Assembly (NCBI GenBank): GCA_945889085.1
Contig: CAMDBM010000002.1
Coordinates: 9,745 to 73,744, forward strand
DNA: 64,000 nt
DNA from: Ferrithrix thermotolerans DSM 19514
GTDB taxonomy: Bacteria; Actinomycetota; Acidimicrobiia; Acidimicrobiales; Ilumatobacteraceae
Direction: 5' to 3'
Positions 4,647 through 10,511 of this stretch are shown here, in pieces; positions within the stretch are counted from its first letter, which is position 1; every line of letters begins with the position of its first letter. Below the pieces are notes generated by a model, which was given only the letters and a program-made list of their open reading frames with translations, did no database searches and had not been told where the DNA came from. The position numbers and the translations under genes are program-made.

Positions 4647-4935
4647 GGGATTCCTCCTCGGATCCGGCGGACTGGGCCGGACTGCGCAATCCTAGGCAAC
4701 GGTGTGCCGAACGTCACGAGATTAGTGATGGGTGTCATGGCCGCCCACACAGTCCCGACGCCGTTTCTGGGTGGAGAGTACGGTGGCACCCAATGCCAGC
4801 GCCGTCCGATCCGTCGTGCCTTGAGCGTTTGGTCGACACGTTGTTCAACCCCGCCGTTGCGCAGGTGCCGAAGGTCGATGCGGCACTCGCCGGGATCGTG
4901 GGATGCCTCGCCCCGTTTGCTGGATCGGCTAGCAA

Positions 4936-6072
4936 ATGAGTGTGGACGAGACCGTGACACCGAGGCGAACGCGCCGGCGCCACTGGTGGTACGTGCGCGG
5001 AAGCCTCAAGGTGATGGCGTCGTTCTTCGTCTTCTGGTTCCTCATCCTTCCGCTCATCCCGGGCTTCCGGAAGGCGAGCAGCGACCTGCAGAACTCGAAC
5101 TTCTGGTTCCTCGGCGTGGGCTTTGTCCTCGAGGGCGTCGCCCTGTTCTGCTACTCGATGCTGACACACGCCGCGCTCGGGGCGCCCTCGCCCAAGCCAC
5201 TGCGGTTGTTCCGCATCCAGCTGTCGACCCGGGCGGTGTCTTCACTCATGCCTGGTGGGTCGGCGGCAGGTTCCGCACTCGGCTACCGCTTGCTCACAAC
5301 CTCGGGGGTTCCGGCAGCAGACGCCGGGTTCGCGCTCGCCACCGTGGGCCTCGGGTCTGCCGTGATGCTCAACATCTTGCTGTTCTTCGCGTTGATGGTG
5401 TCCATCCCGCTTCGCGGCTTCAACCCTGTCTACGGCTCGGCTGCGGTGGTCGGGGTCATCCTTCTGATGTTCTCGGCCGGTGTCGTTGTCGGCCTGCTGC
5501 AGGGCCAGACACGCGCCGAGCGGCTCGTGCGCTGGGTCGCACGGCGGCTGCGCTTCGACCCGGACCGCGCGGTCGCTGTCATCCGTCACGTGGCCGATCG
5601 CATGCGGTACCTCCTGAGGGACCGCCAGCTGTTGGCACGTGTCGCGGTGTGGGCGGCGCTCAACTGGTTGCTCGACGCGGCGGCCCTCTGGTTCTTCCTG
5701 CGCGCGTTCGGCGGTTCCATCGCCGTGGACGGCCTGCTCGTGGCGTTCTGTCTGGCGAACGTGCTGGCCGTCATCCCGATCACCCCGGGCGGCCTCGGGA
5801 TCGTCGAGGGTGTCTACATCCCCGCACTCACCGGGTTCGGCCTGACTCGAAGCCAGTCGTCGCTCGGCGTGCTCGGCTATCGGCTGGCCCAGTACTGGGT
5901 GCCGATGCTGATCGGTGGTCTCTGTTACGTCTCGCTGCGAGTCGGCCCGTGGTCGATGGAGCGCCGGGACCGCCTCGCCCGACTGCGCCAGGTGGCCCAT
6001 GACTCAATCATGGACACCACCGACTCGCTGGAGTGGGCCGAGAAATACGCACAGCGCCGTCCGGGCACGTAG
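4936..6072 (+). CDS. integral membrane protein, lysylphosphatidylglycerol-synthase-TM / flippase-like family
   Basis: Polytopic hydrophobic protein with a basic N-terminus and PITPGGLGIVEG typical of the UPF0104/LPG_synthase_TM family. Confidence 0.6.
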   Translation: MSVDETVTPRRTRRRHWWYVRGSLKVMASFFVFWFLILPLIPGFRKASSDLQNSNFWFLGVGFVLEGVALFCYSMLTHAALGAPSPKPLRLFRIQLSTRAVSSLMPGGSAAGSALGYRLLTTSGVPAADAGFALATVGLGSAVMLNILLFFALMVSIPLRGFNPVYGSAAVVGVILLMFSAGVVVGLLQGQTRAERLVRWVARRLRFDPDRAVAVIRHVADRMRYLLRDRQLLARVAVWAALNWLLDAAALWFFLRAFGGSIAVDGLLVAFCLANVLAVIPITPGGLGIVEGVYIPALTGFGLTRSQSSLGVLGYRLAQYWVPMLIGGLCYVSLRVGPWSMERRDRLARLRQVAHDSIMDTTDSLEWAEKYAQRRPGT

Positions 6073-6084
6073 CGTTTGGGTCCT

Positions 6085-6600
6085 ATGACCGTCCACGATC
6101 GCCCCTTCGGCCGCTGCCTCGAAGACTTCGCAGTTGGTGACATCTACCGGCACTGGCCCGGCAAGACCATCACCGAGTACGACGACCACCTCTTCTGCAT
6201 GATCACCATGAATCATCACCCGTTGCACACCAACGACTGGTTTGCGGCCAAGAGCGTTCAGGGTCGCAATGTGGTGGTCGGCAACCTCGTGTACTCCCTC
6301 ACGCTCGGCATGAGTGTCCCCGACGTGAGCGGTGCCGCCATCGCCAACCTCGAGGTGGAGACGCTGCAGCACAAGTTCCCCACATTCCACGGGGACACCA
6401 TTCACGCCGAGACCCGTGTCCTCGACGTGCAGGAATCGAAGTCTCGCAACGACCGCGGTGTCGTCACCGTCGAGACAAAGGCGTTCAACCAGGACGGCAA
6501 GGAAGTGTGTTACTTCCGCCGTCGCGTGATGGTGTGGAAGCGCGAGTTCGCCCCCTCGCGGGAGCGCCCGTATGACGGCCAGGACGTCTGGGCCGGCTGA
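6085..6600 (+). CDS. MaoC-family (hot-dog fold) dehydratase
   Basis: Hot-dog hydratase pattern: ITEYDDHLFCMITMNHHPLHTN, then GDTIHAETRVLDV and GVVTVETKAFNQDG. Confidence 0.8.
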   Translation: MTVHDRPFGRCLEDFAVGDIYRHWPGKTITEYDDHLFCMITMNHHPLHTNDWFAAKSVQGRNVVVGNLVYSLTLGMSVPDVSGAAIANLEVETLQHKFPTFHGDTIHAETRVLDVQESKSRNDRGVVTVETKAFNQDGKEVCYFRRRVMVWKREFAPSRERPYDGQDVWAG

Positions 6601-6613
6601 TCCCGCGTTGAGC

Positions 6614-7459
6614 ATGGCCGACCTCGTCGGCCGTGTGCTGGCGTGGGGTTTGCCCCGCATGCGGGATCTGCCGTGGCGGCAGTCCCGGGACCCGTGGGGC
6701 ATCCTCGTCGCAGAGGTGATGGCCCAACAGACGCAGGTGGACCGGGTGGTGCAGCGCTGGGGCCGGTTCCTCGAGCGCTTCCCCACTCCGGCCGCGTGCG
6801 CAGCCGCACCGCTCGGTGACGTCCTGCGCGAGTGGCAGGGCCTCGGGTACCCGAGGCGAGCAAGGCATCTCCACGAGTCAGCGAACCGCGTGGTGGAGCT
6901 CGGCGTATTCCCGTCCACGCTTGACGGGCTGCTGAGCCTGCCCGGGGTCGGTCAGTACACGGCGCGTGCGGTGCTCGCCTTCGCGTTTGAGTCGCCGGCG
7001 GCCGTGGTGGACACGAACATCGCACGGGTGCTCGCAAGGACGGTGGGGGAGCGGCTCACGGCGAAACGTGCGCAGTCGATTGCCGACGAACTCTGCCCGC
7101 CCGAGGATTCGTGGGTGTGGAACCAGGTGATCATGGACCTCGGTGCCGTCCTGTGCAGGCCAGCGCCTCGCTGTGCTGAGTGTCCGATCCAGCAGCAGTG
7201 CGTATGGACTGCGTCGGGTCAGCCGGATCCAGACCCTGCGATCGGCACGGCCGGCGTCAGTGGCAAGCAGGCGCGTTTCGAGGGATCGGACCGTCAGGCC
7301 CGCGGCCGACTGATGGCGAGGCTTGTTGTGGGCCCCCTCTCGGCTGCCGAGGCTGCGGCCGCGATGCAGGTGGACGCAGAACGCGCCGAGCGACTCGTCT
7401 CGGCGCTCGTCGCCGAGGGTCTTGTTGTCGGCAACGGTGAGTCGCTCCGGCTGCCCTAG
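6614..7459 (+). CDS. mutY: A/G-specific adenine DNA glycosylase (MutY/HhH-GPD family)
   Basis: LPWRQSRDPWGILVAEVMAQQTQV, HhH LPGVGQYTARAVLAFAF, and the 4Fe-4S loop CRPAPRCAECPIQQQC. Confidence 0.8.
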   Translation: MADLVGRVLAWGLPRMRDLPWRQSRDPWGILVAEVMAQQTQVDRVVQRWGRFLERFPTPAACAAAPLGDVLREWQGLGYPRRARHLHESANRVVELGVFPSTLDGLLSLPGVGQYTARAVLAFAFESPAAVVDTNIARVLARTVGERLTAKRAQSIADELCPPEDSWVWNQVIMDLGAVLCRPAPRCAECPIQQQCVWTASGQPDPDPAIGTAGVSGKQARFEGSDRQARGRLMARLVVGPLSAAEAAAAMQVDAERAERLVSALVAEGLVVGNGESLRLP

Positions 7460-7466
7460 GGCCTGC

Positions 7467-8006
7467 TCAGCGGGTCACGGAGCGAAGGATCTCGGCGAAG
7501 GCCTCGTCGGCCTTGGCGCGCATCTCGTCGTCGGTGCGGTCCTGAATGGGATGTGGCACGAACACGCTCGCCGGCGTGAAGCCGAGTGCCGCTGATTGCG
7601 CCTCGGCGGCCTGAACGAACTCGGTGGAGGCAATGAACATGCCGACCACACCGCGGGACTCGAGATCACTGATGTCGTGCACACTGCACGACGTACAACT
7701 GCCTCAATCGGCGAGTGCTTCGATAACCACCTGGCACTGGCTGGCGATCTCGTGGCGGAGGTCCACGGGGGCCGGCTTGGTGAAGGTGGGCTTCTTGAAG
7801 CGTTTCACCTTCGCCCCGACCTCGGTGAGACGCTGCTCGAGCCGGTCGAGGAACACGTCGCCGCGCGCCTTGGAGATGTCGAGCAGACCGACGGTCATGC
7901 CGGACAGCGTCGTCGGTCGCTCGAGGAGCGTCCGGTGGGCGACGGTGCGCTCACTCGTGGGATCCAAGATGGTCGTGGTCACGTGCTCATCTCCTCGTGT
8001 CGTCAA
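7467..8006 (-). CDS. UGSC-family selenoprotein with in-frame UGA (selenocysteine) at 7704..7706
   Basis: Track ORFs 7704..8006 and 7467..7682 are one frame (540 nt), interrupted only by TGA. Read-through gives ...VVIEALAD-U-GSC-TSCSVHDISD..., which contains the U-G-S-C signature. A SECIS-like hairpin follows. The likely true start is GTG 7982, 8 nt after GAGGAG (7991..7996). Confidence 0.8.
7674..7692 (-). promoter_or_regulatory. putative bacterial SECIS hairpin
   Basis: On the minus strand, exactly 11 nt after the UGA, lies GTCGTGCA-GTG-TGCACGAC. This is a perfect 8-bp stem, or 7 bp plus a 5-nt AGUGU loop, with G/U in the apical loop. Confidence 0.65.
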
Positions 8007-8021
8007 TTCTGTGTCGTCGGT

Positions 8022-9494
8022 TCATCGCCAAGTCACTTCTCGTGTGACGGGCTGGCTGCCCGCCGCACCGTTTAGCCAGCCACCGATCATGGTGGAGAAC
8101 AACCCGGCACCGCCACCAGCATGCACCAAGAGGATGCCGCCCTGCCGGAACTTCGGGAGTGTTTGGTCTTTCAGGCCCTCCGGCACGCCCTCGGCGATAC
8201 CGGCGGCCCCGCGGATGATGTCCGCACCCGCTATCTGCGTGCGCTCGTGGAGCTCGGCGAGGATGCGGGTTCGGTCCCACCCGGCGTCCGCGAACACACG
8301 GGCGTGCTCCGGGCCGAGGATGAGGACGACGTCAAAGGCGATGACAAGCTTCGGATGCGTCATGGCGCGCAATGCAGCAGCCAACGAGTTGGCCAGCGAC
8401 TCGGGTGTGCGTGACAACTGATCCACAATCACCTTGGGGCCTTCGCCGGCAAACAGCGTGATGGCGTCCGTGCCCGGGGTGATCCCGCGTTCGGTGGCGA
8501 GCGAGGTCCACGGCGAGCCCACTTCGTCCTCGGGGAAGCAGAACGAGATCTTCCCAGGATTGCCGTGTGCCGCGCGGTCCACGCCGCCCGGACGGCCACC
8601 GCCGACATTGCGGATCACGAGTTGCAAGGCCCTGCCGATGGTGAGGTTGGCGCGGTTGCCCTGGCCGAGCACGTTGACACCGCTGTTCATACCGATGGCC
8701 TGCGTGCCCGGACCGTTACAGATGATGACCGGACCCACCGGCATCGTGGTGGCCAGCACGCCGTGGATGTTGAACTCGTCGGTGCACGCGGCCTGCACGG
8801 CAGTAAGCACCCACGGGAAATACTCGGGTTTGCAACCGGCCATGACGGCGTTGATCGCAACCTTCTCCACCGTGATCTCCACGAGGTCCGGTGGCACGAT
8901 CGCAACGAGTTCGTCCGGAGCGTGCGAGGTTCCCTCGAGCATGCGCAGCACGCGGGCCTCGGTGGGCGGCACGACGGGGAGGCCGTCGGTCCAGCCGCGC
9001 TCGAACAATGTCTCCATCTCGTCCTCGAGCGTTGCGAGTTCGATGCGGCGTGCACGCAATTTTGATCCGGTGAAGCGGACGCGCAGTTCGTCGGCAAGGT
9101 CGGGATCCACCGACTTCGACCCGCAACCCGGGCGCATCACCGGAAGATCGGGTGCTAGCCCCGCAACGCCGCTGACCTGCTCCCAGTCGGTACGGGACCA
9201 GCCAACAGTGCGTTCAAGCTCCCGGCCGTTAGCCACCCGGATGAGCGTGGGTACGGTCTCGATCTCGTGGTGCCAACTGACAGCGAGCTCGGCATCCGAG
9301 AGTGACGGCAGGCCGCCAAGGAACGACGCATCGTCCTGCACGTAGACGGTGAGCGGGGTTGCCGAGGCACCCAACTGTTCGAGCACGGGCACGACCATGC
9401 GGCATGTGGCGCAGTCCTGCTTGACGACCACGACGAGTCCGTCGGGTAGTACAGGTGCGGCGGTCGGGGCGACGGCGTGCGGCTCAGCGGACAT
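8022..9494 (-). CDS. thioredoxin-fold (CxxC) domain fused to a ~350-aa domain of unknown function
   Basis: 490-aa ORF with ATG at 9494. The N-terminus VVVVKQDCATCRMVVPVLEQL is thioredoxin-like. I do not recognise the remainder (GWTDGLPVVPPT..., GGGRPGGVDRAAHGNPGK...). The ORF ends 15 nt upstream of the UGSC ORF on the same strand. Confidence 0.6.
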   Translation of the reverse strand: MSAEPHAVAPTAAPVLPDGLVVVVKQDCATCRMVVPVLEQLGASATPLTVYVQDDASFLGGLPSLSDAELAVSWHHEIETVPTLIRVANGRELERTVGWSRTDWEQVSGVAGLAPDLPVMRPGCGSKSVDPDLADELRVRFTGSKLRARRIELATLEDEMETLFERGWTDGLPVVPPTEARVLRMLEGTSHAPDELVAIVPPDLVEITVEKVAINAVMAGCKPEYFPWVLTAVQAACTDEFNIHGVLATTMPVGPVIICNGPGTQAIGMNSGVNVLGQGNRANLTIGRALQLVIRNVGGGRPGGVDRAAHGNPGKISFCFPEDEVGSPWTSLATERGITPGTDAITLFAGEGPKVIVDQLSRTPESLANSLAAALRAMTHPKLVIAFDVVLILGPEHARVFADAGWDRTRILAELHERTQIAGADIIRGAAGIAEGVPEGLKDQTLPKFRQGGILLVHAGGGAGLFSTMIGGWLNGAAGSQPVTREVTWR

Positions 9495-9582
9495 TGACCC
9501 GGACGGTAGTGCTCCGGTGCGACATGTGCCACAGTCCCGCCCCTAGACACGGCCAGATGGCACCCGTAGCGTCTGTCCCGCT

Positions 9583-10437
9583 GTGGGGAACACCGTTCGA
9601 ATCACGTTCCACGGCGTCCGTGGGTCGACGCCGTGTCACGGTGACGAAGTCCGTCGGTACGGCGGGAACACGTCATGCGTGTCTGTTGACGCGCCCGGGG
9701 AGGACCCGCTCGTGTTCGACCTCGGCACCGGATTGCGCTACTTCGGCCGAAACCAACCCCACGACGGATCGTTCCGAGGAACGTGCCTGCTCACGCACCT
9801 GCACTGGGACCACACCCAGGGTCTCCCGTTCTTCGTCCCGATCCTGCGCGATGGCGCCAAGCTCGACATCTACGGGCCAACCCAGGAGGACGGGGCCACG
9901 GTCCGTACCGCGATGAGCCGCTTCATGGCGCCCCCACACTTCCCGGTGGAGCTGGACAAGCTTCCCGGTGCGATCAACTTCTTCGATGTGGGCGACCACG
10001 ATTTCTTCGTCGGGGGCTTCGCCGTCCGGTCGCGCCTCATCCCCCATGTTGGCAACACGCTCGGCTTCCGGGTGGAGTGGAACGGGCTGTCGATTGCCTA
10101 CCTGTCGGACCACCAACAGCCCTACGACGGTTCGTTCGGCGCCACCGACGGGGCGATGGACCTTGTACGCGGTGCCGATCTCGTGATCCACGATGCGCAG
10201 TACACGCCTGAAGAGTTCGAGATGAAGAGCACGTGGGGTCATTGCACGGTTGATTACGCCGTGTGGCTCGCCGCAACAGCGGGCGCCAAGCGTCTTGCTC
10301 TGTTCCATCACGACCCGACCCGTCATGACGACGATGTGGACGCGCTGCTGTGCGCGGCGCGCGAGTCCGGCCGTGAACAGGGTGTGGAGGTCTTCGCTGC
10401 AAGCGAGGGTCTCACCGTGTCGCTCGACGCTGCCTGA
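9583..10437 (+). CDS. MBL-fold metallo-hydrolase
   Basis: Metal-binding motif HLHWDHTQG and a later HHD near the C-terminus. Confidence 0.85.
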   Translation: MGNTVRITFHGVRGSTPCHGDEVRRYGGNTSCVSVDAPGEDPLVFDLGTGLRYFGRNQPHDGSFRGTCLLTHLHWDHTQGLPFFVPILRDGAKLDIYGPTQEDGATVRTAMSRFMAPPHFPVELDKLPGAINFFDVGDHDFFVGGFAVRSRLIPHVGNTLGFRVEWNGLSIAYLSDHQQPYDGSFGATDGAMDLVRGADLVIHDAQYTPEEFEMKSTWGHCTVDYAVWLAATAGAKRLALFHHDPTRHDDDVDALLCAARESGREQGVEVFAASEGLTVSLDAA

Positions 10438-10511
10438 CCGAGGCTTACCCGTTGCCGGTAAGGGCAGATCCCCGGTTGCGTTGACGAGTACGTGCCGGAC
10501 GTCTGCTCCCC

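Follow-up and report, generated by a model that had tools for sequence, protein, structure and literature searches.

A UGSC-family selenoprotein gene annotated as two fragments in Ferrithrix thermotolerans DSM 19514

The UGSC family and a gene interrupted by UGA

The UGSC-containing protein was named by Zhang and Gladyshev (2007/2008) and was listed in 2007 as a selenoprotein whose function was not known and that was also found in Hyphomonas neptunium (PMC1976440). In the Global Ocean Sampling (GOS) data reported in 2008 the family was represented by 255 sequences with selenocysteine (Sec) and 21 with cysteine, it was the most frequently used selenoprotein family among the non-marine aquatic samples, and a 'likely Trx-like fold' was suggested for it (PMC2398784). 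The GOS survey also contained a domain, 'Unknown_1', fused to UGSC. A count made in 2016 gave 33 UGSC genes in 26 sequenced organisms (PMC5029168), and a 2026 review lists the family with the model NF041046, the functions of such families remaining uncharacterised (PMC13188914). The gene described here lies on the minus strand of a 64,000-nucleotide window (the whole stretch of DNA analysed) from contig CAMDBM010000002.1 of Ferrithrix thermotolerans DSM 19514, and is very probably a genuine UGSC-family selenoprotein gene with a functional selenocysteine insertion sequence (SECIS). The frequency of UGSC in the non-marine GOS samples fits the freshwater-type Acidimicrobiia source of this gene.

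The minus-strand open reading frames (ORFs) 7704..8006 and 7467..7682 were found to share one frame (7467..8006) in which the TGA at 7704..7706 is the sole break, as had been proposed in a preliminary description made from the sequence alone. Translation through this codon gave ...QVVIEALAD-*-GSCTSCSVHDISDLESRG..., and the peptide across the Sec residue reads EALAD-U-GSCTSCSVHDISDLESR. The U-G-S-C motif in which the UGA had been placed thus appears on translation as D-U-G-S-C-T-S-C. The splitting of the locus that had been expected of standard gene callers is present in public records of metagenome-assembled genomes (MAGs), where two 'UGSC' ORFs of 92 and 71 aa are annotated, each with a match to the UGSC Pfam family. 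Gene callers have thus divided at the UGA what is a single gene, whose product is a small redox protein with selenocysteine. The features of the gene are as follows.

7467..7982, minus strand: complete UGSC-family selenoprotein gene, 171 sense codons including Sec93, with its GTG start at 7980..7982
7467..7469, minus strand: TGA stop codon of the UGSC gene
7704..7706, minus strand: Sec codon 93, the in-frame UGA in D-U-G-S-C-T-S-C, kept as TGA in relatives and replaced by Cys in homologues
7707..7709, minus strand: codon -1, GAU (Asp), directly 5' to the UGA, its synonymous site nearly frozen
7991..7996, minus strand: Shine-Dalgarno-like GAGGAG, 8 nt 5' of the GTG start, read from the sequence and of putative function

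The real start is most likely the GTG at 7980..7982, which makes the UGA codon 93 of 171, because the GAGGAG stands 8 nt ahead of it and because both the public 92-aa gene call and a set of homologue fragments of ~94 aa agree with it. The TTG at 8006 is probably not the start. Within the range of 171-179 aa first given for the product, the value of 171 is favoured.

Family membership was examined by hidden Markov model (HMM) searches with the read-through product, in which Cys was substituted for the Sec/stop position. The NCBIfam equivalog model NF041046, 'UGSC family (seleno)protein', matched with 156 bits against a cut-off of 125 (E = 6.3e-46) and spanned both halves, and the Pfam model PF24696, 'UGSC', matched with 142 bits against a cut-off of 25 in an alignment that covers both halves and the UGA. 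The assignment to a UGSC-type family is upheld by these scores, both of which exceed the curated cut-offs. The length of 171 codons compares with 170-191 aa in the homologues, which are single-domain proteins, and the motif D-U-G-S-C-T-S-C occupies the same column as D-C-G-S-C-T-S-C in full-length homologues.

A search of 5.8 billion proteins returned 4128 relatives that fell into two populations. The first consists of full-length proteins of 170-190 aa with 45-70% identity, and the second of many fragments of ~94 aa with about 80% identity that cover the N-terminal half only. In the alignment the fragments all finish exactly at ...EALAD, while the full-length proteins mostly read D-C-G-S-C-T-S-C. 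Termination of homologues at this position, which the preliminary description had named as evidence against a selenoprotein, is therefore seen in the fragments, but it is a gene-calling artefact, because the DNA of the fragments continues in frame. The gene is an ordinary, mis-annotated member of a family that has been described since 2007-2008 and has dedicated NCBIfam and Pfam models. It shares with that family the length of ~170-180 aa, the U/C-G-S-C-T-S-C core and the Sec/Cys dichotomy among homologues, and no essential differences were found.

Conservation of the UGA codon and of the hairpin behind it

Relatives at the DNA level were collected by a scan of one genome per GTDB species, which gave 80 loci, nearly all from Acidimicrobiia/Ilumatobacteraceae-type MAGs, with protein identities of 70-85%. 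Codon 93 was TGA in 80/80 of these species-level relatives and TAA or TAG in none, and 2 Sec lineages of greater distance likewise had TGA. In the 80 species the frame beyond the UGA stays open for 74-89 codons and then ends at a normal stop; stops downstream of the UGA numbered 0 in the gene frame versus 41 and 62 in the other two frames. The two halves of the protein gave dN/dS ratios of 0.145 (N-terminal) and 0.21-0.25 (C-terminal), and codons +1 to +3 gave dN = 0 at a dS of about 1.2, a switch of the Ser codon family from AGY to TCN included. TGA also terminates 26 of the 51 coding-like ORFs of the window, among them the UGSC gene and its upstream neighbour; it is thus an ordinary stop elsewhere in the window, and there is no genome-wide reassignment of the codon.

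The selection data (dN/dS, codons +1 to +3 and the open frame) are taken to exclude two readings of the locus. According to the first, the TGA is a nonsense mutation or an artefact in a former Cys codon, and the gene is a pseudogene or an assembly error. A single base change does turn TGC or TGT into TGA, and MAG assemblies do contain errors. Yet TGA stands at codon 93 in all 4 loci from independent assemblies that encode an identical 490-aa upstream protein, as well as in 80 different species, the downstream frame is intact and under purifying selection, and the hairpin described below is under its own selection at synonymous sites. This explanation is effectively refuted.

According to the second reading translation really stops at the UGA, a separate start at the GTG at 7680..7682 yields the C-terminal 71 residues, and the two polypeptides assemble into one domain. 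The ORF track does contain a GTG-started ORF of 71 aa, and each of the two pieces in the public gene calls has its own UGSC Pfam match. The seven codons between the UGA and this GTG (GSCTSCS) would then not be translated. Their synonymous sites vary, however, whereas the peptide that they encode does not, and this peptide agrees with the CGSCTSC core that is conserved among the Cys-form proteins, which are single chains. There is no Shine-Dalgarno motif ahead of GTG 7680..7682, and one distant Sec form (L166) has ACG, which is no start codon, at the GTG position. A split gene is thus very improbable. The two halves had been expected not to behave as independently conserved genes, and indeed they are always adjacent and in frame, with dN = 0 at dS ~1.2 for the codons from UGA to GTG.

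The hairpin that had been described 11 nt past the UGA was present at the coordinates given below.

7674..7692, minus strand: upper hairpin of the bacterial SECIS (bSECIS), GUCGUGCA-GUG-UGCACGAC, with 8 bp and a 3-nt loop, beginning 11 nt after the UGA
7685..7692, minus strand: 5' arm of the hairpin, GUCGUGCA
7682..7684, minus strand: apical loop, GUG
7674..7681, minus strand: 3' arm of the hairpin, UGCACGAC

The GTG from which the downstream ORF was called had been dismissed as an artefact lying inside the hairpin loop. It is an artefact; its position was only partly right, since 7680..7682 comprises the last base of the loop and the first two bases of the 3' arm. Folding of the hairpin alone gave -10.9 kcal/mol, and in a 90-nt context the eight pairs had probabilities of 0.66-1.0. 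The bSECISearch consensus describes a loop of 3-9 nt and an upper stem of 4-16 bp, with G within the first two positions of the loop and, as a rule, G or U after it, a distance of 16-37 nt from the UGA to the loop and a minimum free energy of -7.5 kcal/mol or lower (PMC13188914). With its 3-nt G-U-G loop, 8-bp stem, UGA-to-loop distance of 19 nt and energy of -10.9 kcal/mol the element agrees with all four parts of this consensus. The element resembles the bacterial SECIS of E. coli fdhF and fdnG and of bSECISearch in being a hairpin that falls within the coding sequence, close to the UGA on its 3' side, and that has an 8-bp upper stem, a small apical loop that starts with G and then U, a spacing of 19 nt and an energy below -7.5 kcal/mol. 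It differs in that the loop has the minimum allowed size (3 nt), no bulged U is evident and a lower stem containing the UGA is not conserved. Such a lower stem appeared in the minimum free energy fold of the single sequence, and since relatives do not conserve it, it was placed outside the element.

Codons +4 to +10 (ACG UCG UGC AGU GUG CAC GAC, 21 nt) had zero synonymous entropy (Hsyn) across the 80 species, the only exception being CAC to CAU in three species, by which a G-C pair becomes G-U. Minor synonymous codons made up 3/560 of the codons in the hairpin, compared with 1064/3504 at equally invariant residues outside it (Mann-Whitney p = 1.6e-5). In an RNAalifold analysis of 83 sequences the 8-bp hairpin was the sole conserved structure, and changes in the stem were limited to one-sided replacements of G-C by G-U in 5/83 sequences. 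Distant Sec forms retain the stem with an altered loop, GUU in L129 and UGUAC in L166.

Genes that carry Cys at the Sec position, 63 unique sequences from metagenomes, served as the control. The Sec column held TGC or TGT in 62/63 of these genes, so that Cys-for-Sec homologues, which the preliminary description had suggested looking for, were found both here and among the full-length proteins of other lineages. The peptide of the hairpin region is the same in Cys forms and UGA forms except at residue +8. At the hairpin codon positions Hsyn was 0.67-2.1 in the 63 Cys-form genes versus 0 in the UGA forms, and all 8 stem pairs can form in only 1/63 Cys-form genes. The UGA forms have Ser-AGU at +7 and Val-GUG or Leu-UUG at +8, whereas the Cys forms have Ser, mostly UCN, at +7 and Thr-ACN at +8; the stem therefore shapes the choice of codons and of one residue. 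The SECIS-like spacing and loop noted earlier are accordingly joined by synonymous sites that are frozen in the UGA forms only. Codon -1 was GAT in 79/80 UGA-form relatives (Hsyn 0.10) versus 40 GAT and 23 GAC in the Cys-form genes, a pattern which suggests that the 5' context of the Sec codon is under selection.

One marine UGA form (L129:3268-3330, TARA_R110000787 scaffold) was retrieved by a Cys-form query among otherwise Cys-form genes. It has flanking motifs common to Cys forms (ALSD... and ...HDLNDL) and has rebuilt the same stem, with Ser +7 as AGU, Leu-UUG in place of Thr-ACN at +8 and the loop GUU. This sequence hints at independent Cys/Sec switches in which amino-acid changes accommodate the SECIS.

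Other residues were seen at the Sec column in single sequences. A 930-bp contig (ENA ERZ27254974 k141_3515288; L165:603-605) has a genuine TGG (Trp) with the SECIS hairpin intact; either UGA was replaced by UGG very recently, or the read is in error. In a second homologue with 'W' at this column (P0005, locus L166) the DNA is TGA, rendered as Trp by the gene caller. The protein P0001 has Arg at the Sec column (alignment A1, columns ~140-165), and in P0010, encoded on a contig of 88 kb, the sequence about the motif is scrambled (RDRGPRRLRELHVVQCARHR) in a way that resembles a local frameshift bypassing the UGA.

Proposed selenocysteine decoding and the predicted redox centre

During translation UGA codon 93 would be decoded as selenocysteine. 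The 8-bp hairpin with its GUG apical loop just past the UGA would act in the mRNA as a bacterial SECIS and bring SelB-GTP-Sec-tRNA(Sec) to a ribosome that has paused at this codon.

Several observations weigh against a functional selenoprotein gene. No tRNA-Sec was found by ARAGORN in the 64-kb window and 60 related loci, and no selA, selB or selD was found by tblastn in the window and all related loci (1.64 Mb; the queries were SelA, SelB and SelD of E. coli). The 63-nt fold was no more stable than shuffled sequence (z = -1.1), RNAalifold revealed no two-sided compensatory change at the stem pairs of the 83 sequences, and Rfam gave no match for the whole window at gathering thresholds or for 7600..7760 at E up to 10. 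In addition, the proposed redox chemistry, like the proposed interaction with the partner protein, is inferred. The Rfam result is uninformative, as the SECIS models held there are essentially not bacterial. In view of the fold statistics the case rests on homology, that is on HMM matches across both halves, and on comparative data, and support for the stem comes from synonymous freezing specific to the UGA forms in place of covariation. Genes of the Sec machinery need not be linked to the UGSC gene, and, as indirect support, a 2026 preprint reports all four genes selA, selB, selC and selD from 84/84 complete genomes of Actinomarina, which belongs to another order of Acidimicrobiia (bioRxiv 10.64898/2026.04.03.716425). 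The residual doubt about the selenoprotein assignment stems from the machinery not having been observed in the loci searched.

The only SelB-like match was a 416-aa GTPase in two relatives, L075 and L068; it was rejected as CysN, as it adjoins CysD and CysH homologues. These genes form part of a sulfate-assimilation cluster (CysH-, CysD- and CysN-like proteins and a siroheme-synthase-like protein; L075:512-4006 and L068:3-338) a few kb from the UGSC gene and its partner.

The machinery result also bears on the reading that the UGA is read through with another residue, for instance Trp, Cys or Gly through near-cognate suppression that the hairpin would stimulate, in a host that lacks the Sec pathway. 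The absence of Sec machinery from the window and related loci would be expected under this explanation, and the contig with a true TGG and an intact hairpin is compatible with it. Homologues, however, align at this column with Cys, which is the usual counterpart of Sec and here belongs to a U/CxxC redox motif, and the hairpin fits the geometry and the G-U loop rule of a SelB-dependent bSECIS. UGSC is moreover a recognised selenoprotein family of organisms with the Sec trait, and if Trp or Cys were tolerated, TGG or TGC would be expected to spread, yet 80/80 relatives have TGA. Insertion of a residue other than Sec is accordingly judged highly improbable, and decoding as selenocysteine is preferred.

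The structure was approached through an AlphaFold2 (AF2) model of a Cys homologue with 66% identity (pLDDT 90.5, pTM 0.84). The model is a five-fold beta-alpha repeat with 5 strands, in which Cys95, the equivalent of Sec, lies between strand E87-93 and helix H96-111, placing the nucleophile position at a helix N-terminus. Foldseek comparison with the PDB returned only generic flavodoxin/Rossmann-like alpha/beta domains with TM scores of 0.5 or less, and no thioredoxins were among the PDB matches of the model. A search of PDB sequences with the UGSC profile gave no match. The fold of UGSC is thus predicted to be flavodoxin-like alpha/beta, contrary to the Trx-like suggestion of 2008. A weak side-match to the Pfam family 2-Hacid_dh_C (14/60 UGSC members, best E = 8e-4) was discounted as generic Rossmann-like similarity only.

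In the predicted structure Sec would stand where strand beta-3 of the flavodoxin-like domain ends, at the N-terminus of a helix, heading a U-x-x-C-x-x-C motif, and an invariant Cys is found at position -10, 10 residues upstream of Sec. The helix-N-terminal nucleophile, the motif and the Cys at -10 together would fit a selenol/thiol redox centre. Sec would most likely be the attacking nucleophile and form a selenenylsulfide with Cys96, possibly relayed to Cys99.

The thioredoxin-domain partner and neighbouring genes

The gene directly upstream of the UGSC gene has the following coordinates.

8022..9494, minus strand: operon partner, a 490-aa 'thioredoxin family protein', with its TGA stop 39 nt before the UGSC start

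In 78/80 Sec-form and 72/80 Cys-form loci the partner lies directly upstream at a distance of no more than about 100 nt and has the same orientation as the UGSC gene, and most of the loci without it are contig ends. Across phyla it is the only neighbour still linked to UGSC, and its exact sequence is present in several MAG assemblies. The N-terminal ~100 residues have a thioredoxin fold with the motif C28-A-T-C31, as indicated by Foldseek (TM to target 0.5-0.7) and a profile search of PDB sequences; the HMM match to thioredoxin was weak, Pfam gave no match, and neither Pfam nor NCBIfam has a model that represents this protein. The C-terminal ~380 residues gave no family match in Pfam, NCBIfam, PADLOC or the PDB, and PADLOC gave no defence-system match. 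Fumarate hydratase was tried as a structural match for this C-terminal domain and was rejected as noise (TM about 0.19). Conservation of at least 95% across phyla, among Sec-linked as well as Cys-linked partners, was seen for 126 residues, including C28, C31, C124, C221 and C319.

A read-through fusion of the partner and the UGSC protein was also considered, as the partner TGA at 8022..8024 is in frame with the UGSC ORF, 13 sense codons lying between them; this in-frame arrangement occurs in only 8/62 relatives and is regarded as coincidence.

The 490-aa protein is probably the functional partner of the UGSC protein. The UGSC gene would be co-transcribed with it, and the CxxC thioredoxin domain of the partner probably swaps reducing equivalents with the UGSC protein. 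On the best reading the two genes would make up a redox module, with electrons passing between the thioredoxin domain and the centre of the UGSC protein. More tentatively, as a possibility that falls a little short of being favoured, they may be an uncharacterised, widely distributed two-component redox enzyme, the novel ~380-aa domain of the partner holding three universally conserved Cys residues and the UGSC protein serving as a flavodoxin-like small subunit with the U/C-x-x-C-x-x-C centre; this centre might then work as a relay through a selenenylsulfide, or conceivably be a metal or Fe-S site with Sec as a ligand, built with the invariant Cys at -10.

The closest analogies of working principle are glycine reductase selenoprotein A (GrdA) and the UxxC protein PrdB of proline reductase. 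Like UGSC these are small proteins with Sec near Cys in a U/C-x-x-C/U arrangement, a larger conserved protein is encoded alongside and a thioredoxin module is at hand. The analogy extends to the working principle only, as no sequence or fold similarity to UGSC was detected for GrdA, GrdB or PrdB and the UGSC partner has no recognisable reductase domain. The hosts differ as well, being aerobic aquatic and soil bacteria for UGSC and amino-acid-fermenting anaerobes for GrdA and PrdB.

Within the Acidimicrobiia the neighbourhood (~4900..10440 of the window and the 80 related loci, L001-L080) further contains genes for an LPG-synthase-like membrane protein, a MaoC-like hydratase, an HhH-GPD glycosylase and an MBL-fold hydrolase. 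These neighbours are present in 46-61 of the 80 loci and are syntenic only within Acidimicrobiia; in the 3-kb flanks examined for the Cys-form lineages, none of the HhH-GPD, MaoC, LPG synthase and MBL-fold genes was linked to the pair. The HhH-GPD glycosylase gene is convergent to the UGSC gene and ends 7 nt from the UGSC stop.

The findings leave the general picture of Sec biology unchanged, and the side results are useful but incremental. Their practical value lies in the correction of annotation, as public MAG records carry the locus as hypothetical 'UGSC' fragments of 92 aa and 71 aa and hundreds of ~94-aa fragments of the same kind are held in protein databases. The gene also provides an example of a coding sequence in which synonymous sites, and even residue +8, are dictated by the SECIS. 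What is added for the UGSC family is a predicted flavodoxin/Rossmann-like fold, a SECIS frozen across 80 species and a 490-aa partner with a thioredoxin domain. The near-universal operon partner, the prediction of a fold other than thioredoxin and the codons and residue +8 dictated by the SECIS may aid the assignment of a function. A two-component redox enzyme, if true, would for the first time place UGSC, one of the most abundant selenoprotein families of fresh waters, in a defined functional context.

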